DNA from: Thermodesulfovibrionia bacterium
GTDB lineage: Bacteria; Nitrospirota; Thermodesulfovibrionia; UBA6902
Direction of reading: 5' to 3'
Assembly: GCA_038918635.1 (NCBI GenBank)
Contig: JBCKZY010000004.1
Coordinates: 1-46,452 of the forward strand
DNA length: 46,452 bases
The first letter of the stretch is position 1. Every line of letters starts with the position of its first letter. The translations under genes and the position numbers were made by a program. The notes beneath the pieces were generated by a model, which did not search any database, had not been told where the DNA came from, and was given only the letters and a program-made list of their open reading frames with translations. This document shows positions 13,720 to 34,592 of the stretch, piece by piece.

Positions 13720-14799
13720 ATGTTAATTCACAGGTCGGTATTTAAGGAACTCTTAATAAACAGTCTGGTGATCATCCTGTCTATGTCGGTGCTGCTGTTT
13801 ATGGAAAAGTTTGTCCGGCTCACGAGGGTGTTGATGGGTAAGGGCTCTGAGTTTACCGATGTCATGAAGGTGTTCTTTTATCTTCAGCCATCACTTTTGC
13901 TGTTGTCGATACCTATGGCGGTGCTTGTAGCCATATTCCTGACATACGGCAGGATGGCCGCTGACAGCGAACTGGTTATACTGAAAGGGAGCGGAATGAG
14001 CTTCCCCGTCATATCAAAGTCGGCTATCGCTATCTCGGTTTACGGTTTTTTCATCCTGCTCTTCATTAGCCTTTATCTTAATCCACTAAGCATAAGCCAT
14101 TATAAACAGACACTGCATGAATCAATTACAAAGAAGGCATCCATGATCCTTGAGGAAGAGACTTTCCTTGATGTGTTTAAGAATACCGTTATATATGTCA
14201 AGGAAATCTCGTCAAAGAACAGCTTCAGGGGTATATTTATTTACAGGGAAAAAGACTCACGCGTAAAAGATCCACTGGTGATCATCGCTGAGGATGGAGA
14301 AATTACATCAAACTATAAAGAAGGATTGATAAAGCTCCTGCTGCGTAATGGAGTAATCCACACAGCAGGGCAAAATGGCTCATCAGAGATATCATTTTCA
14401 GAGTATGATTTTATTCTCACGTCAGGGATAGAGGTATCGCTGAATACAAAACTTCATGAGATACCTTTTATGGACCTCTGGAGAGACCGCAAGGAAAAGA
14501 TTTTATGGCAAATAGAGCTTAACAAACGGTTTGCAATGCCATTTGCATGTCTTATCTTCGGCATTTTAGGCCCCGCAATCTCAAGCAGAATGGGCAGGAT
14601 AGGACGCCTGGGCGGATTCTCATTTAGCCTGTCTCTGATCATTATTTACTACGGGATGCTCATCATGGGAGAGGGTCTTGCCAAAGCAGAGAAAGTATCA
14701 CCACATATCGGGGTATGGATGCCAAACCTGTTTTTTGGAACTATAGCAATTATTATCTTCTACATAGCTTCTAAAGATGCGCCGGCAAAAAAACTTTAA
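13720..14799 (+). CDS. lptF: LPS export ABC transporter permease LptF
   Basis: YjgP/YjgQ layout (3 TM, periplasmic beta-jellyroll, 3 TM), with GRMAADSELVILKGSG, ELNKRFAMPF and GVWMPN. Confidence 0.88.
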   Translation: MLIHRSVFKELLINSLVIILSMSVLLFMEKFVRLTRVLMGKGSEFTDVMKVFFYLQPSLLLLSIPMAVLVAIFLTYGRMAADSELVILKGSGMSFPVISKSAIAISVYGFFILLFISLYLNPLSISHYKQTLHESITKKASMILEEETFLDVFKNTVIYVKEISSKNSFRGIFIYREKDSRVKDPLVIIAEDGEITSNYKEGLIKLLLRNGVIHTAGQNGSSEISFSEYDFILTSGIEVSLNTKLHEIPFMDLWRDRKEKILWQIELNKRFAMPFACLIFGILGPAISSRMGRIGRLGGFSFSLSLIIIYYGMLIMGEGLAKAEKVSPHIGVWMPNLFFGTIAIIIFYIASKDAPAKKL

Positions 14800-14814
14800 G
14801 GACCTGAAATAACA

Positions 14815-15885
14815 ATGAAGATTCTGTTGAGATATTTTTTTAAAGAGTTTTTCAAGCTCTTCATGATAGTTTTACTCAGCATGACCGCCATGATGGTCAT
14901 TGCAGAGTTTTTCGACAAAATTGATATGTTCTATTCAAAAAAAGCGCCTGCATCCATTATGCTTCAGTATTTTGTGCTCCTCTCCCCCAAATACATACTT
15001 TACTCGGCCCCAATAGCCTCATTACTGGCCATACTGGTCACAATAGGAAGGGCCTCAAAATGGAAAGAGACAGTGGCCATAAAGGCATCAGGAGGAAGCC
15101 TGAAGAGAATTTTTTCAGCATTTCTCATACTCGGGGTTCTTATAAGCTTTATTGCCCTGCTTTTCGGTGAAATCGTTGTTCCCGCAGCAGTAAGAAAAGC
15201 CATATGGGTAAAGGATACAAAGATACTGAAACAGTCACGGAAAATATCCTTCAGAAGAAAAGCCCTGTGGCTCAAAGGAATCGACGGCAGCCTTATACGT
15301 ATCAGGAGCTTTGTGGAGAACGAGAACAAGGTGATTGGGGTTGGCATATATGTCTTCAACCCGTCTTTCGATATTGAGAAGAGGATTGAGGCGGAAGAGG
15401 CAGAATGGGTAGACGGCATATGGAGACTCAAGAATGTGACGGTATTTGATTTCAGTAACGATACCATATCAAAACACGATTCACTAACTTCACATGCCAT
15501 TGAAGAACCTGAGATATTCAGGGAAGAGATGAAAAAACCTGAAGAGATGAACTTCATGGAACTTCACAGATATTACAGCAGGCTTGAGAAGGCAGGTTTC
15601 AGGAACGTAAAGTATGTAATGCGACTATATGAAAAACTCTCCTACCCAACGGTCAATTTTGTTATGATCCTGTTCGGGCTTACTCTCTCCCTTAATGCAA
15701 GATGGGGAGGAGGTATCAGGTCTGCCGGGCTCGGGATCGCCATAAGCGTAATATACTGGCTTATTTATTCAATGAGCATATCCCTTGGCAATACAGGCAT
15801 GGTCCCCCCGTGGTTTGCACCATGGATCAGCCCTTTAATCTTCGGAATTGCGGGAAGTGTTATGTATATAAGGATAAAAGAGTGA
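14815..15885 (+). CDS. lptG: LPS export ABC transporter permease LptG
   Basis: Second YjgP/YjgQ paralogue directly after lptF, with ETVAIKASGGS, A..A.WVDG.W, KLSYP and APWISP. Confidence 0.88.
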   Translation: MKILLRYFFKEFFKLFMIVLLSMTAMMVIAEFFDKIDMFYSKKAPASIMLQYFVLLSPKYILYSAPIASLLAILVTIGRASKWKETVAIKASGGSLKRIFSAFLILGVLISFIALLFGEIVVPAAVRKAIWVKDTKILKQSRKISFRRKALWLKGIDGSLIRIRSFVENENKVIGVGIYVFNPSFDIEKRIEAEEAEWVDGIWRLKNVTVFDFSNDTISKHDSLTSHAIEEPEIFREEMKKPEEMNFMELHRYYSRLEKAGFRNVKYVMRLYEKLSYPTVNFVMILFGLTLSLNARWGGGIRSAGLGIAISVIYWLIYSMSISLGNTGMVPPWFAPWISPLIFGIAGSVMYIRIKE

Positions 15886-18353: not shown

Positions 18354-19130
18354 ATGAGATGGCTCAATAAAAAATTAATTCTCGAGTTTGTCAAGAGAGA
18401 CTTTGAAGAGAGGTTTGCCGGCTCTGTGCTGGGAAGGTTATGGTCTTTCATCGGTCCTCTTGTAAATATATTAATTTATACAATAATATTCTCAAATCTT
18501 ATGAGCGCGAGACTTTCAGGTGTTGATAGTAAATTTTCCTATAGCATATATCTCATTGCGGCATTGCTCCCCTGGATTGCCTTTTCTACCACAATATTAA
18601 GATCCACGACAGTGCTTATAGACAAAAAACACCTGATATCAAAGATAAACATAGCCTTTCCTTCCATGCCGTTATATATAAATCTTTCAGAGACTGTTAC
18701 GCTGTTTATATCTGTTACAATCTTTTCCGGCTTTTTAATAATATTCGGACACCCTTTTTCAGAATATTCCATATTGATTCCTTTTATATTCATACTTCAG
18801 CAGCTCCTGGCATATGCTATCGGATTGACACTCGCTGTCCTGACAGTCTTTATAAGGGACCTGAAAGAGGTGGTAGGGATAGTTTTACAGGTATGGTTCT
18901 GGTTTACCCCTATAGTTTATGTCAAAGAGATCCTTCCTGAGTTTGTAAAAAAGATCATTATTTTTAACCCTTTCTTTATCCTTGCCGACAGCTACCAGAG
19001 CATCTTTCTATGGAATAGACTGCCCGATATACAGCATCTTGTAATTCTTACTGTAATTACCTTTATACTCCTGATCTCTTCGTATCTTATATATATGAAG
19101 CTCGAGTCTGATGTGAGGGATTTTCTATGA
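18354..19130 (+). CDS. wzm: Polysaccharide ABC transporter permease Wzm
   Basis: RDFEERFAGSVLGRLWSFIGPL, RDLKEVVGIVLQVWFWFTPIVY and NPF, with six hydrophobic segments. Confidence 0.95.
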   Translation: MRWLNKKLILEFVKRDFEERFAGSVLGRLWSFIGPLVNILIYTIIFSNLMSARLSGVDSKFSYSIYLIAALLPWIAFSTTILRSTTVLIDKKHLISKINIAFPSMPLYINLSETVTLFISVTIFSGFLIIFGHPFSEYSILIPFIFILQQLLAYAIGLTLAVLTVFIRDLKEVVGIVLQVWFWFTPIVYVKEILPEFVKKIIIFNPFFILADSYQSIFLWNRLPDIQHLVILTVITFILLISSYLIYMKLESDVRDFL

Positions 19131-19363
19131 TCTATCTCTTCTTATCTATAGCGGTCATATTACTTGTTTATCTTCTGTTTATGTTTTTTGTTATGAAGAG
19201 AGTCATAGCCTGGGGATACAAGTCTCTTATTTACGGTCTGCTCACATTTATCATGCTTGTCGGCATATTCCTGACCTTTGCCTGGTATGAAAAAAACTGG
19301 AAAGATGCCGGTCCCCTGAATAAAGAACCAGCTATTGGGAGTTTTTTAGATGATAAAAGTTGA
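19127..19363 (+). CDS. Small two-TM membrane protein between wzm and wzt
   Basis: 78-aa ORF. Its ATG overlaps the wzm stop (ATGA) and its 3' end overlaps the wzt start. Two clear hydrophobic helices. Confidence 0.7.
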   Translation: MIYLFLSIAVILLVYLLFMFFVMKRVIAWGYKSLIYGLLTFIMLVGIFLTFAWYEKNWKDAGPLNKEPAIGSFLDDKS

Positions 19364-20555
19364 TAATCTGTATAAAGTCTTCAAGCTGTATCATGACCCA
19401 AAAGACCGGCTGAAAGAGATATTCCTGAGAAGGAAATACTCAAGAGAATTTACAGTCCTGAAAGATGTGACCTTTAAAGTGGAAGAAGGCGAAACCCTCG
19501 GCATCATAGGTGAAAACGGGGCCGGTAAATCGACACTGCTGAAGATACTTACCGGCATTCTCCTTCCTACTGGGGGTAATGTTCATGTTGACGGCAGCAT
19601 TACCGGTCTTCTTGAACTGGGGACCGGCTTCAACCCCGAGTTCACAGGCCTGAAGAATATTTACATGAACGGCCTGTTAATAGGGATGAGCAGGGAAGAG
19701 TTGGACAGTAAAGTTAACGACATTATCGCATTCACTGAGCTTGGGAAGTTTATTGAAGAGCCTGTAAAAACATATTCTTCCGGGATGGTTATGAGGCTCG
19801 CTTTCTCCATTGCAATACATGCTGAGCCGAGGGCGTTTGTTATTGATGAGGCGCTCTCTGTAGGGGATGCATATTTTCAGCAGAAGTGCATGAAGAGGAT
19901 CAGGGAGTTCAGAGAAAAAGGCGGATCTATCGTGTTTGTGTCGCATGACCTGAATTCTGTAAAGGTTCTCTGTGACAAAGCATTGCTTTTAAGCCATGGA
20001 GAAGTTGTTGAAGAAGGGGCGCCTGAAAAGGTCATCAATACATATAACTTTCTTATTGCCAAAAAGAGCAAGGGGGAGGAGATAAGGGTTGAAGGTGCCG
20101 GAGATAAGAAATCTTACGGTAATTTCAGGGTAGAGATCGCGAAAGTCGAGTTTCTCAACGAACATGGAATAAGTTCACAGGTCTTTGTCTCCGGTGAAAT
20201 GGTGAAGATAAGAGCCCATCTTAAGGCAAATGAGGATGTAGACAGTGTAGTTGCAGGCATCCTGATAAGAGACCGGTTCGGTCAGGATATATTCGGCACC
20301 AACACCTATCACCTGAATAAGGTCATATCTCTTAAGGCAGGAGAGACCCCTGTATATGAATTTGATTTTAATCTGAATATAGGCGCTGGAAAATACACAT
20401 TAACAACCGCCACTCATAAAGATGATACACATATTGATGAAAGTTACCACTGGCATGATAATATTCTGAGATTTGAAGTGCTTGGTACAAAAGAGAGGAT
20501 GTTTATAGGCTTATCAAAACTGGATGTCGGGCTTGATATCATAAAAAACCCCTGA
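19350..20555 (+). CDS. wzt: Polysaccharide ABC transporter ATPase Wzt with C-terminal carbohydrate-binding domain
   Basis: GENGAGKSTLLK, YSSGM signature, IDEALSVGDAYFQQKC and VSHD, plus a ~150-aa Wzt_C-like extension (IRDRFGQDIFGTNT). Confidence 0.96.
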   Translation: MIKVDNLYKVFKLYHDPKDRLKEIFLRRKYSREFTVLKDVTFKVEEGETLGIIGENGAGKSTLLKILTGILLPTGGNVHVDGSITGLLELGTGFNPEFTGLKNIYMNGLLIGMSREELDSKVNDIIAFTELGKFIEEPVKTYSSGMVMRLAFSIAIHAEPRAFVIDEALSVGDAYFQQKCMKRIREFREKGGSIVFVSHDLNSVKVLCDKALLLSHGEVVEEGAPEKVINTYNFLIAKKSKGEEIRVEGAGDKKSYGNFRVEIAKVEFLNEHGISSQVFVSGEMVKIRAHLKANEDVDSVVAGILIRDRFGQDIFGTNTYHLNKVISLKAGETPVYEFDFNLNIGAGKYTLTTATHKDDTHIDESYHWHDNILRFEVLGTKERMFIGLSKLDVGLDIIKNP

Positions 20556-20620
20556 CGCTTTATGTCTCTATCCAGTTTTTTAGGCCACTTTTCTTTAACG
20601 AAAACTTTAACTTAGAATAA

Positions 20621-20649
20621 TTGACTCAAAATTTTTATTATGCTACTTT
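20621..20649 (+). promoter_or_regulatory. Putative sigma-70 promoter of the first TA module
   Basis: TTGACT (20621-26), 17-bp spacer, TGn-extended TACTTT (20644-49), then an AAGGAG Shine-Dalgarno. Confidence 0.55.
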
Positions 20650-20666
20650 AAAACAAAGGAGCTACT

Positions 20667-20861
20667 ATGAACGTCAAGGAAAAATATCTTATTGATGAAA
20701 AAGGAAATAAAAAGGCTGTTGTTCTAGGTCTCAAGGAATATAGAAACATAATGGAACTAATCGAAGACCTCGAAGACACTAATGATCTCCTCAAAGCAGA
20801 ACGGAAAGCAACCGGTTTTACTCCATACGAAAAATTCCGCAAGACCTGGCTGAAAGATTGA
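20667..20861 (+). CDS. Putative type II antitoxin (RelB/Phd-like)
   Basis: 64 aa with an IDEKGNKKAVVL..EY...ELIEDLED pattern. Overlaps the downstream toxin start. Confidence 0.7.
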   Translation: MNVKEKYLIDEKGNKKAVVLGLKEYRNIMELIEDLEDTNDLLKAERKATGFTPYEKFRKTWLKD

Positions 20862-21118
20862 ATTACAGAATCATAATAGAAAGACGGGCAGAAAAAGAAG
20901 CAAAGAAGATTCCGGCAAAATATCGAGCTGCAATTGACAGAGAGATCCTTTCCCTTGTAAACAATCCAAGACCTTATAATTCCAAAAAGCTTACCGAAAA
21001 AGACGGCTATCGTATTCGCATAGGCAATTATCGTGTGCTTTATACAATAGATAATAAGGCAAACGTTGTTGTTATTTATAGGATAAAAAGCAGAAGCGAG
21101 TCCACTTATATTCGATAA
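20858..21118 (+). CDS. RelE/ParE-family toxin
   Basis: Basic 86-aa protein with NPRP..KKL...YRIRIGNYRVLY.ID. TTG start coupled to the antitoxin stop. Confidence 0.88.
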   Translation: MNYRIIIERRAEKEAKKIPAKYRAAIDREILSLVNNPRPYNSKKLTEKDGYRIRIGNYRVLYTIDNKANVVVIYRIKSRSESTYIR

Positions 21119-21530
21119 TCCACTAAAAGCATTTGTCGTTGAATTTAGCTAATTTCTGTTGCGGAAACCTTCTTGAATAAGAATGTTTTCGAAATATTGT
21201 TATTTCGACCCTGCCTGCGGGCAGGCATGCAACAGCAGAAATCTTTTTGTTGACAGTTTTTTCGAGTGTCAATCACTTTTAGCAGCATTAAATAGTTAAG
21301 TTACACACCCCGCGTCTATGACCTCCTGCACCCAGAACTGAAACTCCACTGAGTCCACAAAGCACTGAAGCACTACTTCTCTTGTAAGAATTATGCCAGG
21401 TCTTCATCAACGGAACCTCCGCAGTCATTGTCTATGAAGAGAGATCGGGAAAATCGGGATTCGGAATCATTCCCCTTTCTTTAAGAAAGATTCCCGCCCT
21501 TGGCGGAAAAACCCTACGGGGCCAATAGTA

Positions 21531-21586
21531 TTGAATATTACCTTTGGTTTCCGATATACTTAAAGTAAGAAAGTAAGGAGGTAAGC
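21531..21586 (+). promoter_or_regulatory. Putative promoter and tandem operator of the second TA module
   Basis: TTGAAT-N18-TATACT, followed by three (A/G)(A/G)GTAAG repeats overlapping the AGGAGG Shine-Dalgarno. Confidence 0.4.
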
Positions 21587-21588
21587 AT

Positions 21589-21867
21589 ATGTCTGCTATA
21601 AAGATAGGGCCTAAACACCAGATTACCATACCAAAGGAAGTGTTTAATTCACTCAGGCTTGAGGTCGGTGACTTCCTCGAGACGCGCGTAGAAGACAACG
21701 CCATAGTCCTGATCCCCAAGAAACTGGTCTCCAAAGACCAGGAATGGTTCTGGTCTAAGGAGTGGCAGGAGAATGAACGGGAGGCGGATGAGGCGATCTC
21801 CAAAGGTGAAGTCTCAGGGCCGTTCTCAAAAGCTTCTGACGCCCTGAAGGCGCTGAAGAAGGGATGA
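21589..21867 (+). CDS. AbrB/MazE/SpoVT-family antitoxin
   Basis: KIGPKHQITIPKEV...L.VGD.LE...AIVLIPK swapped-hairpin motif and a QEWFWSKEWQ..EREAD C-terminus. Confidence 0.9.
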   Translation: MSAIKIGPKHQITIPKEVFNSLRLEVGDFLETRVEDNAIVLIPKKLVSKDQEWFWSKEWQENEREADEAISKGEVSGPFSKASDALKALKKG

Positions 21868-22121
21868 AGGTTGCCTTTTCCAAGCCCTTTCAGAAAGATT
21901 ATAAGAGACTACCAAATAAGATTCAAAAACAGATAGATGAACAGATAACGCATCTTCTGGATAACCCGAAACATCCTTCCCTCCGGATGAAAAAGATGGA
22001 GGGGCATCCTTCCGTCTGGGAGGCAAGAATTACCCATGGATACCGAATGACCCTTGAGATTCATGATGACATTTATCTCCTCAGAAGAGCCGGAACACAT
22101 GACATTCTAAAAAGGCCGTAA
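21864..22121 (+). CDS. RelE-superfamily toxin (YafQ/YoeB-like)
   Basis: FSKPFQKDYKRL, NPKHPSLR.KK, WEARIT..YRMT and GTHDIL. ATGA overlap with the antitoxin. Confidence 0.85.
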   Translation: MKVAFSKPFQKDYKRLPNKIQKQIDEQITHLLDNPKHPSLRMKKMEGHPSVWEARITHGYRMTLEIHDDIYLLRRAGTHDILKRP

Positions 22122-22279
22122 CCGGTAACTTATTGCATTTGAAATGCCCCCTTTGTTGGGCGGGGGACATGATGCATACTTTTATTTCAGTAGAAAAGTG
22201 CATATAATAAAACCTTCCTTAACTGATTAAATACATTGTATTGGTACATTTAATTAAATCTTAAAATCAAGGAGATAAG

Positions 22280-23767
22280 ATGTCAGATAATTTCAGAGAG
22301 ACAAACTACCCTGAGGTTGATATAGACAAAATCATGGAGCAGATCAGGGAAGAAGTGACTCGAAGACGCGGTGAAAGAAATAAGTCTTCTCATAATGATG
22401 AGCCCGTCAGGCATGAAAAGGCTTTTATCGACGCTTCTGAAATCATGACCATAATATCCTCTGCTGAATCAATTGCCGATATAAGTTTGATGACACCCAA
22501 AATGCTCCAGTTCAGTGGGTTGACCAGAAGACTGGCTGTCTTTACAGGCAAAAAGATACTGTACTTATCAACCTTCATAACTGCCAAGCAAAGAAGTTTC
22601 AATATAACCATCATCCATGCATTAAGGACGATAACTGATACCCTGACAAGATTAGGCAATGATATCTTCTTAAGGATTAAGAATGAAACAGATGACAATA
22701 TTGAACCCCTGAAAAAAGATATAGGATCAATAAATACCCGGCAGACAGATATGAGCTCCACCCTTGAAGGCCTTACAGGAAGCCAGGCCGAAACTGCGGC
22801 CCTTCTGAAGCTCCTCAAAAACGGACAGGCTGAAACCGGGAATATTCTGCAAAATCTCATGAACGAGCAGGCTGAGACCGCCTCCTCGCTGGGGAGCATC
22901 AGGAAGGAGCAGGCAGAAACCGGGAATATTCTGCAAAATCTCATGAACGAGCAGGCTGAGACTTCCTCTGCACTGGGGAGCATCAGGAAGGAGCAGGCAG
23001 AAACCATCTCCTCTATTGAAGGACTCAGAAAAGAGCAACATACACAGCTGGAAGAGATTGGGAAGAACATGGAACAGATAAAAAGTATCGTCAATAATGA
23101 CGATGGATCTCTTGAGGCCCTGTACGTCTCATTTGAGGAGAAGTTCAGGGGCTCAAGGGAAAACATTAAAGAGAGAGTTAAAGAATATCTCCCATACATA
23201 AAAGAGGTGAATGCCGGAACCAGTGATTTACCGGTACTTGATATAGGCTGTGGCCGGGGTGAATGGCTTGAGCTGCTCAAGGATGAAGGGTTAATCGCAC
23301 GTGGTGTTGATAAAAATAGCATCTTTGTAAGTCAGTGTAGTGAACTGGGTCTTGATGTCACCAATGAAGATATATTCGTTTATATTAATAAACTGCCTGA
23401 TAAGAGCCTTGGAGCAGTTACAGGATTTCATATCATTGAACATCTTCCTTTTGTTCAATGGATTAAACTGCTGGATGAGACCGTGAGGGTTCTCAATGTG
23501 GGAGGAGTCGCAATATTTGAGACCCCTAACCCTCAAAATGTTTCTGTAGGCAGCTACAGCTTCTATATGGACCCGACCCACAGAAAACCCCTGCCCAGCC
23601 AGATGATAAAATTCATCGCCGAGGCCAGAGGTCTCTCGAGTGTTAAAATACTGGAGCTTCATCCCAACCCAGAAGCAGGAAATAAGTCCGGCTCAGATAC
23701 TGACAAGCGATTTAATGAACATTTCTACGGTCCTCAGGATTATGCTGTTATCGGATATAAGAGATGA
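22280..23767 (+). CDS. Class I SAM-dependent methyltransferase with a long N-terminal coiled coil (glycan-capping methyltransferase candidate)
   Basis: FEEKFRGS, VLDIGCGRGEWL, FHIIEHL, IFETPNP, FYMDPTH and GPQDYAVIG. 14-aa QAET repeats precede the catalytic domain. Confidence 0.9.
   Translation: MSDNFRETNYPEVDIDKIMEQIREEVTRRRGERNKSSHNDEPVRHEKAFIDASEIMTIISSAESIADISLMTPKMLQFSGLTRRLAVFTGKKILYLSTFITAKQRSFNITIIHALRTITDTLTRLGNDIFLRIKNETDDNIEPLKKDIGSINTRQTDMSSTLEGLTGSQAETAALLKLLKNGQAETGNILQNLMNEQAETASSLGSIRKEQAETGNILQNLMNEQAETSSALGSIRKEQAETISSIEGLRKEQHTQLEEIGKNMEQIKSIVNNDDGSLEALYVSFEEKFRGSRENIKERVKEYLPYIKEVNAGTSDLPVLDIGCGRGEWLELLKDEGLIARGVDKNSIFVSQCSELGLDVTNEDIFVYINKLPDKSLGAVTGFHIIEHLPFVQWIKLLDETVRVLNVGGVAIFETPNPQNVSVGSYSFYMDPTHRKPLPSQMIKFIAEARGLSSVKILELHPNPEAGNKSGSDTDKRFNEHFYGPQDYAVIGYKR
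22742..23077 (+). repeat. Intragenic 42-bp (14-codon) tandem repeat, 8 units, including a near-identical 84-bp duplication
   Basis: Gln codons at 22742, 22784, 22826, 22868, 22910, 22952, 22994 and 23036. 22826-22909 closely matches 22910-22993. Confidence 0.92.
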
Positions 23768-24792
23768 TACGGAGAGTGGCTGTTATAGCTGTTAAGCCGG
23801 CCAGAGGAGAAAAGGGAGGGGCAGAGAGGCTTTATGAAGGTCTGGTTTCTTCGTTACACTCAGACGGTGTTACGGCTGACTTAATAAATATTGTCAGTGA
23901 TGAATCATCCTTTGAAGCTATTGAGGAGACATACCTGCGTGTTTATGATCTTGACCTTTCTTCCTATGATGGTGTGATATCTACAAAGGCACCTTCTTAC
24001 CTCATAAGGCATACTAACCATATCTGCTATCTCATACATACGATGAGGGTGTTTTACGATATGTTTGATAATGAATTTCCCCAGCCAACAAAAGAGCTTA
24101 TGAAACAACGTGAACTCATACTAAACCTGGATTCAGCGGCATTAAGTTACCCAAGGACAAAAAAGATATTTGTGATTGGGAACGAGGTAAAAAACCGCCT
24201 TTTGAAATATAACCAATTGGAATCGAAGGTACTTTACCCTGCCCTGCCATCAGACAATTTCAGACGAGGCTCATTTCAATATATCTTTACTTTAAGCAGA
24301 CTGCATCGCTGGAAACGGGTAGACCTCATAATCAAGGCGATGAAATATGTGGACAGGCCTTTGACATTAAAGATCGCAGGTACCGGGGAAGATGAGACAT
24401 GGTTCCGTGAACTCGCAGACGGGGACAAAAGGATCACCTTTCTTGGGCATGTCTCTGATGAAGATCTCATTGACCTGTACGCAAATGCTTTAGTTGTCCC
24501 TTTCGTTCCCAAAATGGAAGATTTCGGCTATATTACTATCGAAGCTTTCCGCAGCTGTAAGCCTGTAATAACATGTACCGATTCAGGAGAACCTGCGTAC
24601 ATTGTTCGTGAAGGGGAGAGCGGTTTTATCTGTCCGCCGGAACCTGAAGCAATAGCCTCAAAGATTGAATACCTTTATGATAATCAGGAAAGAGCGAAAA
24701 AGATGGGAATACAGGCTAAAGAGTCAATAAATCACATAACGTGGGAGAATGTCTCTGAAAAATTACTCTCAGCATTAGGAGCAAACCGATAG
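23764..24792 (+). CDS. Glycosyltransferase family 4 (GT-B)
   Basis: GGAERL, SRLHRWKRVDL, EDFGYITIEAF (EX7E-like), KPVIT and GESGF. Confidence 0.92.
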   Translation: MIRRVAVIAVKPARGEKGGAERLYEGLVSSLHSDGVTADLINIVSDESSFEAIEETYLRVYDLDLSSYDGVISTKAPSYLIRHTNHICYLIHTMRVFYDMFDNEFPQPTKELMKQRELILNLDSAALSYPRTKKIFVIGNEVKNRLLKYNQLESKVLYPALPSDNFRRGSFQYIFTLSRLHRWKRVDLIIKAMKYVDRPLTLKIAGTGEDETWFRELADGDKRITFLGHVSDEDLIDLYANALVVPFVPKMEDFGYITIEAFRSCKPVITCTDSGEPAYIVREGESGFICPPEPEAIASKIEYLYDNQERAKKMGIQAKESINHITWENVSEKLLSALGANR

Positions 24793-27283
24793 ATGGGTAA
24801 AGATTCAGATAAACGTGTAAAGGTTGTTGTTCTGGATATGCAGCCAATTGACCCGCCTGTTGGTGGGGGAAGGATCAGACTTTTAGGGCTCTATCATGGA
24901 CTGGGAGCAGATCTTCCTACAACCTATGTTGGGACCTATGACTGGCCCGGTGAAAAATTCCGTAAACATCGATTAAGTGACACCCTTGAAGAAGTCGATA
25001 TCCCCTTAACCAATGAGCACTTCAGGGAGTCTGAAAAGTGGCAGGCTAAAGCAGGGGGGAAGACTATCATTGATACATCGTTCCACCAGCTTGCTCACCT
25101 CTCACCACAATTTGTTGAATACGCAAAGAACGAAGTATTAAAGGCCGATATTGTCATATTTTCACACCCATGGGTCTATCCGCTTATGAAAAAAGAACTA
25201 AAACAGAATAAACAACTCATTGTTTATGATTCTCAAAATATGGAAGGCTTGCTCCGTACAGAGTTATTAGATGACGGCGCCTTTGGTACAGAAATTGTAA
25301 AAGAAGCGGTAAAGGTAGAGTATGAACTCTGCCATACAGCGGATATTACACTGGCATGCTCTCATGAAGACAGGGAGATGTTTCATAAGATGTATCAGGT
25401 GCCATTTAAAAAGATAAGGATTGTACCAAACGGCGTATTTACAGAAAACATTTTGCCTGCAGACAGAAAAAAGAGAGAGAACGCTAAGAAAAAACTGGGT
25501 CTTGAAGGTAAAATTTTATCCATCTTTATCGGCAGTGCATACGCGCCGAATATTGAGGCCGCGAACGTTATCTGTCAGACACTGGCACCCGAACTCCCGC
25601 AAATAACTTTTGCGATATGCGGCGGGGTCGGAAACTCACTGGATAAAAAGCTGCTCGATAATGAAAAAGGTTCTAATGTAATAGTGACAGGCCTTATGGA
25701 TGAAACAGAAAAACTCCAATACCTCGCGGCAGCAGATATCGCCCTGAATCCGATGTCTTCCGGCTCAGGCACCAACATCAAGATGTTTGATTTTATGGCC
25801 GCTGGAATCCCTGTAGTAACAACACCTGTTGGAGCAAGGGGGATTGAGAACGGCACAAACTCTGCTTTCAGAGTATCTTCCCTTAAGGACTTTATCCCCG
25901 AAATCAATAAAGTAATGAATGATGAAAACCTGAAAACCGATTTATCGAACAACGCGCGGGTTTTGGTTGAGGGAAAATACTCGTGGGAACGGATATCGCC
26001 TAACCTTGGTTGCATACTCAAAAAAGCTTTAATTGAGAAACGACAAAGCCCCCGAGTCATCAATAAAATTGCTAATGTTTATGTAGAATCATCATTAATT
26101 TATACGAAATGTGAATCTGTAAAAGCTGATTCTTTTAATATAAGTAAAGGTACTCAACCAAATACCTTTGCCGAGACAAAAATACAAATAGCTTTATTGA
26201 CACCTTGGGGTATCCCTTGTGGAATAGCGGAACATTCTAAATACCTAGTGGACTCATTGAATCGACATAACGTAAAGTGTCTGATTCTATCTAATATAAA
26301 TAGAGATTCAAAACATTGTGGGCCAAAAAATAAAATGTCTTCCTCTATAGCTATTGAAGAAATATGGCAATATGGAAACATTAAAGCAAAAGATGTGGTT
26401 AATATTTGTAGAAACGCTTCTATTAACAAGCTTAATATTCAATATAATGCTGCTTTTTTTCAACGAAGAATCACTTATCGATATTGTGAACGAATGTATA
26501 AAGGCAGGTATTGATTTAATTGTTACCTTACACAACACCAAAAATATGGAAGTAGTATCTTTGCTGAAAATTGGGAATATGGGTGCATTGTTAATCGTTC
26601 ATAACATTGATGAACTAAAAAGACTTTCAAGTTTAGGTGTTAAAGGCTTGTCCCATATTCCTCTTGGTATTTTGGAAATCCCTGATGAACCAGCCATGGC
26701 CTTGCGAGAAAAATTTGGCATATCTTCTTCTCCCGTTATTGGGTCTTTTGGATTTCTTCGACCTCATAAGGGGCTAATTGAGCTTATAAAGGCTACTTCT
26801 ATATTGCTTAAGCTGTTTCCCAACATAGCTCTCTTTGCCATGAATGCACTATACCCAAGTGAGGATTCAAAAGAATATTTAATTGAATGTTATGATTGTA
26901 TAAATAGTTTAGGTCTCACCAATCATATTCGACTTGATACGCAATTCCTGGAAATTGAAGATCTCATCAGGAAGCTACATGTATGTGATCTTATTGTTCT
27001 GCCCTATCACTATAGTAATGAAGGGGCAAGTGCTTCAGTTAATATGGCCATTGCTGCTAAAAGGCCTGTGCTTACCACCCGTGAAGAGATATTTAAAGAG
27101 TGTAGTGATGCAATTTATCAGGTTGAAGGAAATGCCCCTCATATATTGTCAGCAGGTATCGCAAAAGTCCTTTTAAGCCCAATGTTATTACGGTCTTTAA
27201 AAATAAAAACTGAAAAATATATAGAAACTAATTCATGGAATTCTGTAGCAGATAAATATTTAAAACTAATATTAAAACAGTAA
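24793..27283 (+). pseudogene. Two-domain GT4 glycosyltransferase split by a +1 frameshift at a T7 tract (26454-26460)
   Basis: ORF 24793-26514 (GT4: SGSGTNIKMFDFMAAG; then PWGIPCGIAEHS) and ORF 26354-27283 (GSFGFLRPHKG, EGASASVNMA) join as ...YNAAFFNEESL... if T7 is T6, giving 829 aa. Confidence 0.8.
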
Positions 27284-27467
27284 TGACTTATTTCAACTAA
27301 TAAATATTTATCCATATAATTTAGATGAATTCTATAACAACCCTAAGTTATGATGGCAATACGAAAGTAGTAGTCCATATTATTTGGAGTATGTATCATT
27401 CTTGATCTTATAACAGTTTTATGCTTATTATTAACATCAATTAACCCCTAAAAAGGACTGTTACGCA

Positions 27468-28172
27468 ATGAAAGTTTCAATTGTAATACCATGTTTTAAT
27501 GAAGTAGAGTCTATCGGAAAGATCTTAGAGATAGTAATGCGTGTCCAGATAGTGGCAGATAAAGAAATTATAATTGTTGATGATTTCTCGACAGACGGGA
27601 CAAGAAAATACCTGAATTCCTTAGAGAAAGAAGATAGCTCCGTTAAAGTTATTTACCATGACAAAAATATGGGAAAAGGCGCAACCTTAAGGACCGGTTT
27701 TAAGGCAGTTACCGGTGATGTGGTGATAATTCAGGATGCTGACCTTGAATATGATCCTAATGATTACATCAGACTCTTAAAACCAATTGTTGAGGATAAG
27801 GCTGATGTGGTTTATGGTTCGCGTTTTGTGGGCGGTGAAGCACATCGCATCCTCTTCTTCTGGCATTCAATCGGAAATAAATTATTAACACTGTTTTCCA
27901 ATCTTTTTACAAACCTGAACCTTACAGACATGGAGGTATGTTATAAGGTTTTTAGAAGGGAAATATTGGATAAGATAGAGCTGAAGGAAGACAGGTTCGG
28001 TTTTGAGCCGGAATTTACCATTAAGATAAGTAAGCTAAAGTGCAGGATTTACGAGGTGGGTATCTCATATTCAGGACGGAGCAAGGGCGATATATGTCAT
28101 TCTGAAATACAGAATATTAAGATAGCCTCTCTGAGTTACATTGCCCTTCTTTTGCATCCCTGTTATATATAA
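27468..28172 (+). pseudogene. GT2 polyprenol-phosphate glycosyltransferase (DPM1-like) with a C-terminal deletion and frameshift
   Basis: SIVIPCFNE, DDFSTDGT, NMGKGA, QDADLEYDP, VYGSRF, LTDMEVCYK and FGFEPE. The native-looking tail ARAIYVILKYRILR* lies in another frame (28081-28125). Confidence 0.75.
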
Positions 28173-28226
28173 CTAGACTTCTTCCATTATCTTTCTAAGG
28201 AAAGCAAAGGCCTCCAAATACTTGTA

Positions 28227-30773
28227 TTGAGTTATATGGATAATACTAAATCAAGACGGAATGAAATGAATAATCATCTTCTAAGACCAAACTCATTATA
28301 TGGAATAACTGTAGTACTTATTCTGCTTTGCATTGGCCTGTACTGTGTTCCCTTTTCCATAATGGGTAATGACCTTGCATATATTCCTGGTGACATCGGT
28401 GATGCAGGGCTAACTTATTACTTACTTGAGCATGGATTTCAATGGCTTTCTGGGAGTCAGGAAAGCTTCTGGAATGCCCCCTTTTTCTATCCCGAACCAA
28501 TGGTCGTTACCTTTGCTGATAGTTTATCAGGAACCTTACCCCTCTACTCTGTATTTCGCCTGTTTGGTCTTGATAGAGAGACATCATTTCAGTGGTGGAT
28601 CATTACTATATTTATTCTGAACTATATCTCCTGCGTCTGGGTTCTGAGAAAGTTTTCAATCAGTCTGCCGGGTGCTGCCGCCGGTGCGTTTATTTTTACG
28701 TTCTCACTTCCTGTGATTGCACGTCTCGGTCATATTCATCTAACAACCCGATTCATGGTTCCTTTGGCATTCTACTTCACATGGAGTTACCTCAAGAAAC
28801 CTGATCTTAAATCTCTGACCGGTTTATGCCTAAGCATCGCCTGGCAATTTTACTGCGCAATATATATTGGGTTTTTCCTAGTTCTTTCAATTGTGGCTTT
28901 CATATTATCTTCTGCGATCATAAATCCGAAGCATTATAAATGGCGGGAGATATTCTGGGGCTCAGTCTCTAAGTTTGCATGTAGAACAGCAGTAATTTCC
29001 GCCTCAGGTCTAATCTTGCTGCCTCTGCTTCTTCCTTACTTCATAACTTCCCTGGATTATGGCTTAAGAGAATGGAGTCAGATATCTACCATGTTACCAA
29101 GAATTCAGAGCCTCGTTATGCCCGTACATGGAAGTCTTTTATGGAACTGGCTCAGGCCTCTAGGTCATAACCTGCCGATGCCATGGGAACACATAATGTT
29201 TATTGGTGTTCTGCCATGGATTGCGGTAATTTATGTTATCTTCAGTTTCAGAATAAATAATAATTATGACTTATCAGTCATTGGAAAGGCTGCCGCACTT
29301 TCTATTGTATTGATAATCCTGATTGTTCTTTACTGGGATGGTTTTTCGTTTTATAAATATATCTCTTTTATTCCGGGAGTCAAGGCTTTTAGGGCGGTTT
29401 CCAGAATTATATTAGTACTCTCATTTTTGTTTGCAATCTCTGTAGGTGTGCTTTTTACAAGATTAGAAGGTCACAAGATTAATAAGAGCTCTAATATGAC
29501 GTTATCCGTCTTTATATTTATTCTTTTAGGTGTATTGGTAGCCGATCAGTATGTTTTCCCTAATTCACAGAATCGCTTTTCGAAATCGTCTGTCCAGTTT
29601 CAATCTCAGAGCTTAGCTGCTGAGGTCCTGAAGAAGAACCCTTCTGCAAAGGTGTTTGCCTATATGCCGTCAAAATCTTCTGACCCACTTCATGTTATAC
29701 ACATGTACGCAATGTTGGCCTCTCAGATTATTCATATCCCGACTATCAATGGCTACAGCGGAAGCGTACCAAGAAACTATGATCTTTGTCTTAATTATAA
29801 TAAACATTGGGCCTTGAAACAGTGGATTACACTCAATAAAGCAAAATATGGCAAATATTACAATTCAACTGATAATTCATTTGACGGTCTGGTTATCGTG
29901 GGGGCACCAGAAAATAATACTGACAGTCATCCCATCTCAATCGCACATGAGGCATTGCCAAATGAAGGATTCAAGGCAGCTATATCACCTTCTTATGAAA
30001 AGATAACAGCAAAAATTAATGCCATAACCTTTTTACCTGTAAAAGTAACAAATAAGAGCGATTTGACTTGGCCAGCTATAGGAGGTTTTGATGGTAAAAA
30101 TAAAATCAGTCTTTCATACCGGTGGTTAACCTTAAGTGGGGAACAAATTGAGGGTTATACTCCGAGATTTCCATTACATTATGATTTAGCTCCCGGTGAG
30201 AGCATTACATTAGATGTAGAAATAAAAGCTCCTTCAGCCCCGGGAATATATATTGCAGAATTTGATATGGTTCAGGAGCATGTATCATGGTTTGCAAATA
30301 AGGGGTCTGAAACCGCACGCATAGGAATAAAAGTGGGTGCTCCCGAGGAACCTCTTGATATTTCTTTCACAATCGCCCATGAAGCATTGCCAGACGAAGG
30401 TTTCCGGGCAGAGATATCACCTGCTTATGAAAAGATAACAGCAAAAATTAATGCCACAACCGTTTTACCTGTAAAAGTAACAAATAAGAGCAACTTGACA
30501 TGGCCGTACAAGGGAAATTTTGATGGCAAAAGCAGAATTAGTCTTTCATACCGGTGGTTAACCTTAAGTGGGGAACAAATTGAGGGTTATACTCCGAGAT
30601 TTCCATTACATTATGATTTAGCTCCCGGTGAGAGCATTACATTAGATGTAGAAATAAAAGCTCCTTCAGCCCCGGGAAGATATATTGCAGAATTTGATAT
30701 GGTGCAGGAGCTCGTTGCATGGTTTGCAAATAAAGGATCTAAAACAGCACGTATAGAAGTAAAATCTGAATAA
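28227..30773 (+). CDS. Polytopic membrane protein, GT-C/YfhO-like, with two tandem C-terminal Ig-like (NBR1-FW-like) domains
   Basis: PGDIGD..YLLEH...FWNAPFFYP N-terminal loop, ~12 TM segments, RAVSR and TINGYSG. Duplicated 144-aa domain (LAPGESITL.V.I.APS.PG.Y..EFDMVQE...WF). True start may be an ATG at ~28237-28266. Confidence 0.75.
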   Translation: MSYMDNTKSRRNEMNNHLLRPNSLYGITVVLILLCIGLYCVPFSIMGNDLAYIPGDIGDAGLTYYLLEHGFQWLSGSQESFWNAPFFYPEPMVVTFADSLSGTLPLYSVFRLFGLDRETSFQWWIITIFILNYISCVWVLRKFSISLPGAAAGAFIFTFSLPVIARLGHIHLTTRFMVPLAFYFTWSYLKKPDLKSLTGLCLSIAWQFYCAIYIGFFLVLSIVAFILSSAIINPKHYKWREIFWGSVSKFACRTAVISASGLILLPLLLPYFITSLDYGLREWSQISTMLPRIQSLVMPVHGSLLWNWLRPLGHNLPMPWEHIMFIGVLPWIAVIYVIFSFRINNNYDLSVIGKAAALSIVLIILIVLYWDGFSFYKYISFIPGVKAFRAVSRIILVLSFLFAISVGVLFTRLEGHKINKSSNMTLSVFIFILLGVLVADQYVFPNSQNRFSKSSVQFQSQSLAAEVLKKNPSAKVFAYMPSKSSDPLHVIHMYAMLASQIIHIPTINGYSGSVPRNYDLCLNYNKHWALKQWITLNKAKYGKYYNSTDNSFDGLVIVGAPENNTDSHPISIAHEALPNEGFKAAISPSYEKITAKINAITFLPVKVTNKSDLTWPAIGGFDGKNKISLSYRWLTLSGEQIEGYTPRFPLHYDLAPGESITLDVEIKAPSAPGIYIAEFDMVQEHVSWFANKGSETARIGIKVGAPEEPLDISFTIAHEALPDEGFRAEISPAYEKITAKINATTVLPVKVTNKSNLTWPYKGNFDGKSRISLSYRWLTLSGEQIEGYTPRFPLHYDLAPGESITLDVEIKAPSAPGRYIAEFDMVQELVAWFANKGSKTARIEVKSE
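29940..30770 (+). repeat. 432-bp intragenic domain duplication
   Basis: Copies start at 29940 and 30372. 30108-30246 and 30540-30678 are identical over 139 bp. Confidence 0.9.
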
Positions 30774-30801
30774 TATTTTATCAAGAGTTCACAGGTATTA
30801 C

Positions 30802-31878
30802 TTGAAATTAAAACTCATACTCATTAACGGCCGCTTCATGTCACAACCTGTTTCAGGTGTCCAGCGATTTGCCCGTGAGGTAATAGGTGAGTTAGCAAAA
30901 ATAGAAAAAAGCGGGTTCAAATTCATTATCGCCCTCCCGGGAGATAATGTCACAATACCTCTTCAGGATATAGAGAGCTATAACGATAATTCTATTCTCC
31001 CAACTTCCTTATGGCAGCAGTTAAGGCTTCCGATTCTTATGAAAAAGCTGAAGGCCGACCTGCTCTGGAGCCCATGCAATATTGGGCCAATTTTTACAGG
31101 AAACCATGTCATATCAATACACGACACAACCCCCTTTGCAGGACCGGAATGGTTCTCTTTCCCATTCAGGACATATTACAGATTCATCTTCCCTTTATTG
31201 GGACAGAGAGCTATAAGGGTCATTACACCAAGCACTTTTTCAAAACAAGATATCGTCAGGTATGGTATTGCGCAAGAGGGAAATATCAAAGTTATCTACG
31301 GCGGTGTAAGCTCTAAATTTACGCATCAAGAACCCTCGCCCTATGATCATCCCTATATCCTTACCGTCGGCTCAATAAACCCGAGAAAGAATATATCAAA
31401 TCTGATAACGTCGTGGGGACGTATCCCCGCTAATGTCAAAGACGGCAGAAGATTGGTGATTGCAGGAGGTGAAGAAAACTGTTATGCCTCGGAAAATTTT
31501 GGGGATATACCTGATGACATAACATTCACAGGGTATATCCCTGACGAAGATCTGCCTTCACTCTACTCAGGAGCGGATGCGTTTATATTCCCTTCACTTT
31601 ACGAGGGCTTCGGCCTCCCGCCCCTTGAGGCCATGGCCAGCGGGTGCCCTGTTATCACTTCAAATCTCTCAAGTATGCCGGAGGTTTGCGGTGATGCCGC
31701 TTATTACATAGACCCGGAGAGCACTGAAAGCATTACAGATGGGATAATAAAAGTCCTGACCGATAGGGACCTGAGGGAAGGTCTTATTCGAAAAGGGCTT
31801 GAAAGGGCAAAGTTGCTCACATGGGAGAGATCGGCAGAGGAACATATAAAGGTTTTTGAAGGGATTTTGAATTATTAG
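30802..31878 (+). CDS. Glycosyltransferase family 4 (mannosyltransferase-like)
   Basis: INGRF..Q..SGVQRFA, SIHD, GSINPRKNI and FPSLYEGFGLPPLEAMASGCPVI. TTG start. Confidence 0.95.
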   Translation: MKLKLILINGRFMSQPVSGVQRFAREVIGELAKIEKSGFKFIIALPGDNVTIPLQDIESYNDNSILPTSLWQQLRLPILMKKLKADLLWSPCNIGPIFTGNHVISIHDTTPFAGPEWFSFPFRTYYRFIFPLLGQRAIRVITPSTFSKQDIVRYGIAQEGNIKVIYGGVSSKFTHQEPSPYDHPYILTVGSINPRKNISNLITSWGRIPANVKDGRRLVIAGGEENCYASENFGDIPDDITFTGYIPDEDLPSLYSGADAFIFPSLYEGFGLPPLEAMASGCPVITSNLSSMPEVCGDAAYYIDPESTESITDGIIKVLTDRDLREGLIRKGLERAKLLTWERSAEEHIKVFEGILNY

Positions 31879-31913
31879 TCGATCTTCAAGACTAACAAAA
31901 AAGGAGCATTATA

Positions 31914-34178: not shown

Positions 34179-34424
34179 AATTAAGGCTCTTCAGATAAAT
34201 TTGTGGGTAAATAAATTAAAAACTACAATATAACATATTGATATATAAACGTTTTATTGTACTGGCAGACTCCCGTTTTTCGGTAGTTAGATACGTTTGC
34301 CAATTCTGAAGGTTTCCCACAGGGCCCACATGACGGTTAATCGCAGCAAGTAGGCTGCTTATTCCATGTGGACTTGTGGAAAACCTCCAGCAGATCACCC
34401 ATAAATTATTCTGACGAGGCAAAA

Positions 34425-34581
34425 TTGACAAGCTCGTAAAAAGTCTTGTTTCCCCTCCCCTGGTGGGAGGGGATTAAGGGGAGGGGGATATAAACATTTG
34501 AAATAAAACCTTTTTCACCCTCACCCCAACCCTCTCCCGTCAAGGGAGAGGGGGTTTTTGGACTTTTTACGAGTCCATCAA
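34425..34581. mobile_element. MITE-like element, 157 bp, same TIR family as 7712-7865 but with a different interior
   Basis: Left end TTGACAAGCTCGTAAAAAGTC; right end reverse-complemented TTGATGGACTCGTAAAAAGTC. The interior has two CCCTCCC..GGGAGGG / CCCTCTCCC..GGGAGAGGG hairpins. Confidence 0.72.
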
Positions 34582-34592
34582 AATTAATTTAT

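Follow-up and report, generated by a model that had tools for sequence, protein, structure and literature searches.

Introduction

Can a tandem repeat inside the gene of a glycan-capping methyltransferase act as a molecular ruler for the length of the glycan? This question is raised by a 46,452-nucleotide (nt) stretch of DNA from a Thermodesulfovibrionia bacterium (contig JBCKZY010000004.1, our C4), here called the window, in which a gene for a 495-amino-acid (aa) protein encodes eight tandem 14-aa units, each of two heptads, ahead of a methyltransferase domain. The window is the entire contig and belongs to a short-read metagenome-assembled genome (MAG) of 1.93 Mb in 174 contigs that is 68% complete. 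An original prediction, made from the sequence, took the units for a recently expanded coiled coil whose copy number tunes glycan length and proposed a contingency locus for surface variation. The ruler concept comes from the Whitfield laboratory, and coiled-coil rulers have been demonstrated in a small number of enterobacterial proteins by engineering insertions and deletions. Among them, WbdD of Escherichia coli O8/O9a and Klebsiella pneumoniae O5/O3 is a chain terminator, either a methyltransferase or a kinase-methyltransferase, and has a coiled-coil ruler. Such rulers are established for WbdD and WbbB, where the terminator always lies at the distal end and the length of the coil sets the length of the chain (PMC11231755, PMC5082667), and taking coiled coils in terminators of this kind for rulers is by now textbook knowledge (PMC11231755). 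Our analysis suggests that the 495-aa protein is probably, although by no means certainly, the chain-terminating methyltransferase of an ATP-binding cassette (ABC)-transporter-dependent O-antigen pathway, a mirror image of WbdD in which the length of the stalk sets the length of the chain. What is new here is not the ruler concept itself but the reversed architecture, found in a very large uncurated family, and the evidence that stalk length evolves by heptad-phased tandem repeats.

A C-terminal methyltransferase on a long predicted helix

The protein consists of three parts (Table 1): a basic, conserved N-terminal module (N-module), a single predicted continuous helix, and a C-terminal class I S-adenosylmethionine (SAM)-dependent methyltransferase. 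The N-module, in which Q104 and N108 are invariant (alignments A1 and A2), matched no Pfam family, and no kinase domain was found in the protein. For the catalytic domain, Pfam, AlphaFold 2 (AF2) and Foldseek concordantly returned a Rossmann-like fold with a glycine-rich SAM loop, the hallmarks of class I enzymes. Methyltransf_23 covered residues 297-454 (45.4 bits versus a cutoff of 27), and the D321-x-G323-x-G325 columns are invariant. The closest solved relative of the domain is Protein Data Bank (PDB) entry 3dli, an uncharacterized SAM-dependent methyltransferase of Archaeoglobus fulgidus, which aligned with residues 280-494 (E value of 2e-36, 37% identity) and superposed in Foldseek with a template-modeling (TM) score of 0.84, normalized to the target. 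This relative, of 240 aa, has neither the N-terminal module nor the stalk.

The AF2 model, computed from a 69-sequence alignment, reached a mean predicted local distance difference test (pLDDT) score of 77.7, with values of 80-89 across the 14-aa repeats and of >90 in the methyltransferase domain. Short helices at residues 15-30 and 53-66 are followed by an uninterrupted helix of 191 residues (81-271), corresponding to about 28 nm at 1.48 Å per residue. As the helix lies ahead of the methyltransferase (residues 277-495), the domain order is indeed the reverse of that in WbdD, as had been stated. The start of the long helix, residues 81-135, contains 10 K/R versus 2 D/E (net charge of +8), is 40% LIVFMYW and has a hydrophobic period of about 3.7; in contrast, the repeat part of the stalk is acidic. 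Within the repeats, heptad position a alternates between Q and L/I and position d between T and L/I, and the power at period 3.5 exceeded that of shuffled sequences. The repeat region is thus one long predicted helix with a heptad a/d pattern, as the prediction of a coil required. In addition, the family profile gave weak matches to solved coiled coils, many of them trimeric, and a coiled coil is thus a plausible form of the stalk.

The methyltransferase gene lies in an O-antigen-type locus

The gene set that accompanies ruler-type terminators, namely wzm, a wzt bearing a carbohydrate-binding module (CBM) and glycosyltransferase (GT) genes, is encoded beside the methyltransferase. In order, the window contains lptF/lptG, an aminotransferase gene between these and wzm, then wzm, wzt and two toxin-antitoxin (TA) pairs. 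The methyltransferase gene comes next and is followed by two genes for GT4 enzymes, a GT2 gene, a GT-C (PMT_2) gene and a Wzy_C gene. Judged by this gene content, the locus is of the O-antigen type and uses the ABC-transporter pathway. No second methyltransferase turned up among the open reading frames (ORFs) of the locus that were scanned (18354-37166), which leaves the 495-aa protein as the only identified candidate for producing the cap read by Wzt_C.

The order wzm-wzt(Wzt_C)-methyltransferase-GT4 also occurs in L001/L002, L003 and L004, in a Nitrospirae MAG (L011), in Nostoc NIES-2111 (L012), in a deltaproteobacterial MAG (L013) and in one contig of the Joint Genome Institute (JGI). A GT4 of 341-342 aa occupies the equivalent position in L001 and in the Nostoc locus. 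Among the nine loci examined, Wzt_C was present in eight and a GT4 gene lay downstream in all nine; the Bacteroidota locus L014 has kept the GT4 genes and has no Wzt nearby. The glycan context that the original prediction presupposed was therefore confirmed: Wzm and a Wzt carrying Wzt_C lie upstream and GT4 downstream, in an order conserved in eight of nine loci. In a broader set of 80 species loci, a Wzt_C match was found within 4 kb in at least 37, and in 35 of these it lay upstream and had the same orientation, according to a crude home-made hidden Markov model (HMM) whose counts are a lower bound.

A probable mirror image of WbdD

The protein resembles WbdD in that a class I SAM methyltransferase would serve as the terminator of a Wzm/Wzt(CBM) pathway with GT4-type polymerases, and in having a long helical spacer between the catalytic domain and an end segment that is both basic and hydrophobic. 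Even the dimensions are comparable, the stalk beyond the basic base (residues 136-271) measuring about 20 nm versus the ~20 nm reported for WbdD (PMC5082667). However, WbdD has its catalytic domain or domains at the N terminus, including a kinase in O9a/O3, and its coiled coil and membrane-binding helix at the C terminus, whereas the window protein carries an anchor-like module N-terminally, places the methyltransferase at the extreme C terminus and is devoid of a kinase domain. Also unlike WbdD, its stalk is built of tandem 14-aa repeats, with core layers that alternate between polar (Q/T) and hydrophobic. Searched against all PDB chains, phmmer and the family profile brought up 3dli and generic methyltransferases. 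WbdD was absent from the PDB matches listed, which comprised two phmmer matches at an E value of ≤0.01, the best 60 of 195 matches of the family profile and the top 50 of Foldseek. Because of the missing match in sequence or fold among these listed entries, the reversed order and the lack of a kinase, the 495-aa protein is not a member of the WbdD family, and it is best read as a counterpart of WbdD in function whose polarity is reversed.

Further parallels are found outside WbdD. In WbbB of K. pneumoniae O12, ORF6-O7 and ORF7-O4, the terminator is likewise distal on a coiled coil in ABC-transporter-dependent glycan assembly, and the distribution of the modules among polypeptides is similarly variable (PMC11231755). 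In these proteins the terminator is N-terminal, and some of them have C-terminal GT modules, while in the window the putative terminator is C-terminal and the polymerase GTs are separate proteins. In Synechocystis, deletion of the slr1610 methyltransferase phenocopies the deletions of wzm/wzt (slr0977/slr0982), with the extracellular polysaccharide (EPS) being altered and not the O-antigen (PMC3769361). Here, too, a methyltransferase is tied by genetics to a Wzm/Wzt exporter; the host of slr1610 belongs to a phylum in which the stalked-methyltransferase family is abundant.

A ruler is a plausible reading of the repeat stalk, and we propose the following mechanism. The basic, hydrophobic N-module (residues ~50-135) would anchor the protein to the membrane, to the GT4 polymerase or to both. 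From this base would project the acidic helical stalk (residues ~136-271, including the eight units), probably an oligomeric coiled coil, with the SAM methyltransferase at its far end. Only chains long enough to reach the methyltransferase would receive a methyl cap, at the terminus and not at internal sugars; the cap would stop growth and would be recognized, for export, by the Wzt_C domain. The modal chain length would then be set by the length of the stalk, at about 2.1 nm per 14-aa unit and about 4.1 nm for the 84-bp duplication. The stalk changes in length by in-frame gain or loss of repeat units that keeps the heptad phase, a process that recurs family-wide. In the lineage of the window, such gain or loss would proceed on an evolutionary timescale, over a few per cent of nucleotide divergence, and would not constitute a rapid switch.

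Repeat number varies among close relatives

The eight 14-aa units were recovered at exactly the coordinates predicted (22742-23077), with the methyltransferase domain downstream of them. In register and in order, they read QTDMSSTLEGLTGS, QAETAALLKLLKNG, QAETGNILQNLMNE, QAETASSLGSIRKE, QAETGNILQNLMNE, QAETSSALGSIRKE, QAETISSIEGLRKE and QHTQLEEIGKNMEQ, of which the first and the last are degenerate. In Tandem Repeats Finder (TRF), positions 22826-23005 came out as an array with a period of 84 (2.1 copies with 93% matches, score of 318), in which rows of period 42 are nested. Units 3-4 and 5-6, each consisting of a type A and a type B unit, are indeed an 84-bp tandem duplication as proposed; the two copies are identical at 78 of 84 nt, five of the six differences fall within codons 200-203, and the longest perfect stretch at an 84-nt offset is 47 nt.

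Among 5.8 billion clusters, only three close relatives were found, P0002 (479 aa), P0003 (448 aa) and P0004 (423 aa). Their N-module and methyltransferase align without gaps except for one 2-aa indel, and the remaining length differences are confined to the array, which contains about 7, 5 and 3 units, respectively, versus 8 in the window gene. The AF2 model of the 3-unit relative P0004 was the same except that the helix comprised 122 residues (79-200) versus 191. Copy number is hence not invariant, in agreement with the idea of a variable stalk, and a 151-nt contig from a sister sample (X2) provided a further variant. This contig joins position 22775 to position 22865 through 5 new bases, with a net loss of 84 nt, and so puts unit 1 directly ahead of a B-type unit; its nine mismatches indicate that it stems from another strain. 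Another contig, from X1, departs from the window sequence after 22810. Collectively, these data single out the array as the part of the gene in which indels concentrate when related strains are compared. Of 61 genomes from the taxonomic family of the window, 5 contain a homologue and only one (G014) has the full architecture, so that no strain series is available there.

The age of the duplication could be estimated from P0002, which likewise has an A-B-A-B layout and whose own two copies are identical at 78 of 84 nt. Compared between the window and P0002 lineages, the copies matched at 73-77 of 84 nt, and identity over the remainder of the gene is 84-88%. All three informative sites grouped the copies within a lineage and none grouped the orthologues, implying that the duplication, or a conversion between the copies, postdates the split. 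Nevertheless, copies that have diverged by 7% do not represent a recent duplication in the population sense. The original prediction of a recent expansion was therefore overstated, given that the copies differ at 6 of 84 positions and that the relative with 84-88% identity is also A-B-A-B, although a duplication or conversion after the split is favored by the informative sites.

Two alternative accounts of the array have to be weighed at this point. Since the MAG was derived from a short-read metagenome, the duplicated 84-bp block might be an assembly error and the true allele might have fewer units. The Logan contigs of the best-matching public run matched exactly as unitigs at 22723-22861, 22892-22945 and 22916-23005, but they break at the repeat and leave 22862-22891 uncovered, so that the reads do not fully confirm the assembled copy number. 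Nevertheless, the two copies differ at six positions, the exact unitigs cross the B-to-A2 junction and the A2-B2-C stretch, and the two independent assemblies of one relative (L001 and L002) both show the A-B-A-B layout, which makes an artifact unlikely; we consider this account extremely improbable. The other account is that the array changes its copy number often within a population, through slippage or recombination, and thereby drives rapid surface variation. It would be in line with the 47-nt perfect repeat at the 84-nt offset between the copies, with the three informative sites, which fit duplication or conversion after the split from L001, with the net 84-nt deletion in the sister-sample contig and with the near-perfect arrays of other family members. 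Yet where a contingency locus would have many near-identical units, there are just two copies at 93% identity, the A-B-A-B layout has persisted in a relative at 12-16% gene divergence, and the variant contigs bear 6-14 further mismatches and thus come from other, diverged strains and are not slippage products. For the window gene, frequent switching is accordingly very improbable and the contingency claim found no support; instead, the length of the stalk is probably tuned slowly in evolution.

Repeat expansion recurs across a large family

A HMMER search of 1.84 billion representatives yielded 4,275 clusters at an E value of ≤1e-30, and a scan of species genomes in GTDB confirmed at least 589 loci or species. 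Among the matches listed, the family ranges over Nitrospirota, many Cyanobacteria, Acidobacteriota, Desulfobacterota, Bacteroidota/Ignavibacteria, Proteobacteria, Firmicutes, Verrucomicrobia and one archaeal MAG. Homologues carry the JGI label "O-antigen chain-terminating methyltransferase," and NCBIfam has no specific model for the family. In 255 members, the methyltransferase was always at the extreme C terminus (median tail of 1 aa) and was preceded by an extension of 26-761 aa; the home-made HMM of the N-module detected it in 139 of them. The charge distribution of the window protein is also that of the family, with means of +4.3 for the basic helix and −3.6 for the spacer. When residues 1-135 were used as a query for the N-module on other enzymes, only five close relatives were returned, the candidates being limited by the word index. 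Long members of the family carry N-terminal fusions of a sulfotransferase, a second methyltransferase or DUF4214, never of a GT. One of them, P0137 (743 aa), has a Sulfotransfer_1 domain at residues 16-241 that is fused upstream of a full-length homologue of the 495-aa protein.

Internal repeats were detected in 144 of 254 members, 29 of which have a perfect 21-aa duplicate, and in 65 of 149 representatives that are <50% identical. In these 65, the repeat offsets were multiples of 7 in 29 cases (p=4e-9) and were 7n or 7n+4 in 42 (p=2e-9). Overall, about 40% of the family has in-frame tandem repeats, mostly in multiples of 7 aa. At the DNA level, tandem repeats were present in 30 of 78 species loci, and their periods were divisible by 3 in all 30 and by 21 in 17, with 42 nt being the commonest. 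The stalk of Anabaenopsis elenkinii CCIBt3563 (L082 chromosome) is made of 13 units of HLQTVDTQLQTTHE, encoded by 13.1 copies of a 42-nt unit at nt 395-943 of the gene with 97% nucleotide identity. Nostoc sp. JL33 has an array of 7 units at 94%, and Microcystis one of 3.4 units of 22 aa at 98%. For copy-number variation that is active, the Anabaenopsis array makes a far stronger candidate than that of the window, which is a modest example of the family-wide repeat expansion. As the repeat sequences differ between lineages, expansion that keeps the helix phase must have been recurrent and independent. In the literature that was searched, nothing relevant to tandem repeats in such rulers was found.

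The family constitutes a natural allelic series, in which the ends are near-identical and the stalks differ by whole 14-aa units (8, 7, 5 and 3 here and up to 13 elsewhere), and this series makes the natural tuning of glycan length directly testable. More tentatively, the stalk of the family could be viewed as a coding minisatellite, in which heptad-phased gain or loss of units, typically of 14 aa or about 2 nm, would be a general natural means of retuning the modal length of O-antigen or EPS, possibly fast enough to produce within-population variants in near-perfect arrays such as that of Anabaenopsis (13 units, 97%). We regard this generalization as possible but doubtful. The architecture of N-module, repeat stalk and C-terminal methyltransferase could also help to annotate loci for O-antigen and EPS better, in cyanobacteria, Acidobacteriota and Nitrospirota among other groups.

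Does the stalk measure, and what does the enzyme methylate?

Several points weigh against a ruler of reversed polarity. We infer the methyl cap and the role in chain length, for this organism as for the family, and we place the membrane end of the stalk solely by charge and hydrophobicity. Domain fusions leave the orientation of the stalk unfixed because none in the family adds a GT, and beyond the class I fold the methyltransferase domain has no detectable relation to WbdD. Furthermore, polar residues occupy half of the core layers of the repeats (Q at a, T at d) and glycine is common, which makes a stable coiled coil uncertain. Finally, the spacer between N-module and methyltransferase ranged from 55 to 272 aa in 88 homologues, and its overall length showed no mod-7 bias; quantization is confined to the repeat offsets. 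The last two points would equally suit a helix that merely oligomerizes or tethers the enzyme, with its length weakly constrained, repeat gain and loss neutral and chain length unaffected, and the five-fold variation of the spacer and the completely different repeat sequences between lineages would suit it as well. However, the repeat offsets are strongly enriched for heptad-compatible lengths, which indicates that the helix phase is under selection, both ends of the protein are highly conserved and only the spacer changes, and the equivalent segment of WbdD does set chain length (PMC5082667). We therefore deem a neutral stalk unlikely.

The substrate of the methyltransferase might also differ from the one proposed, in that the enzyme might methylate internal sugars or something other than a glycan, for example a lipid or a protein, with Wzt_C reading another feature. 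This would be compatible with the uncharacterized status of 3dli, with the next matches being small-molecule methyltransferases such as UbiG, and with extra stalk-less methyltransferases in related loci. Nonetheless, we judge it quite improbable, as the gene keeps a tight synteny with Wzt_C and GT4 genes in different phyla, the scanned ORFs of the window locus yielded no other methyltransferase, and a stalk would make little sense on a soluble small-molecule enzyme. Terminal capping by a stalked methyltransferase hence remains our preferred reading.

Features of the window and neighboring genes

Table 1. Coordinates of the stalked methyltransferase gene, its parts and the genes of the surrounding glycan locus in the window
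Feature	Coordinates	Strand	Evidence
lptF and lptG	13720-15885
wzm, ABC-2 permease of the glycan exporter	18354-19130	+	Pfam ABC2_membrane 8e-14; weak NCBIfam matches to Wzm/KpsM
wzt, ABC ATPase with C-terminal cap-binding Wzt_C	19350-20555	+	ABC_tran 1.4e-20; Wzt_C 2.2e-37, residues 253-389
Stalked methyltransferase gene, 495 aa; predicted chain-terminating capping enzyme	22280-23767	+	ORF; family membership
Conserved N-terminal module, residues 50-125	22427-22654	+	Alignments A1, A2; home-made HMM
Basic, hydrophobic start of long helix, residues 81-135; putative base for binding to the membrane or a partner	22520-22684	+
Eight 14-aa (two-heptad) helical units, acidic spacer, residues 155-266	22742-23077	+	TRF, AF2
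84-bp copy 1, units 3-4 (types A, B; QAETGNILQNLMNE-QAETASSLGSIRKE)	22826-22909	+
84-bp copy 2, units 5-6 (types A, B; QAETGNILQNLMNE-QAETSSALGSIRKE)	22910-22993	+
C-terminal class I SAM methyltransferase domain, residues 277-495	23108-23764	+	Pfam, PDB 3dli, Foldseek, AF2
GT4 glycosyltransferase, candidate part of the polymerase; overlaps the stop of the methyltransferase gene	23764-24792	+	Glycos_transf_1 2.5e-27
Second GT4 glycosyltransferase	24793-26514	+	Glyco_trans_1_4 3.7e-15
WaaL-like O-antigen ligase (Wzy_C)	34593-37166	+	Pfam Wzy_C 5.3e-13

Two antisense ORFs that overlap the repeats, at 22390-23322 (minus strand, 310 aa) and 22727-23041 (minus strand, 104 aa), were not treated as genes; most likely, they are by-products of repetitive, stop-poor sequence. 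Between wzt and the methyltransferase lie two type II TA pairs, a RelB-like/ParE pair at 20667-21118 and a MazE-AbrB-like/ParE pair at 21589-22121. Since the gap between wzt and the methyltransferase is only 7-44 nt in L001, L003 and L004, the two pairs represent a ~1.7-kb insertion within the glycan operon (20667-22121). In L003 (2969-3475), L011 (9376-9882) and L014 (8880-9374), an ORF of 164-168 aa that has no Pfam family and is absent from the window is located between the stalked methyltransferase and a dual-GT4 protein of ~950 aa that is WbdA-like. Further downstream in the window, a GT2 polyprenyl-phosphate glycosyltransferase (27468-28172) shares the locus with the GT-C/PMT_2 protein (31914-34178) and with large unannotated proteins; this set (27468-34178) resembles the "three-component" systems for extracytoplasmic side-branching of glycans (PMC11127046). 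Lastly, a small hydrophobic ORF overlaps both wzm and wzt (19127-19363). It has counterparts in L003 (61-288) and L011 (2863-3033), and with 43-71% identity and 19 invariant residues in relatives it probably encodes a genuine microprotein belonging to the exporter operon.

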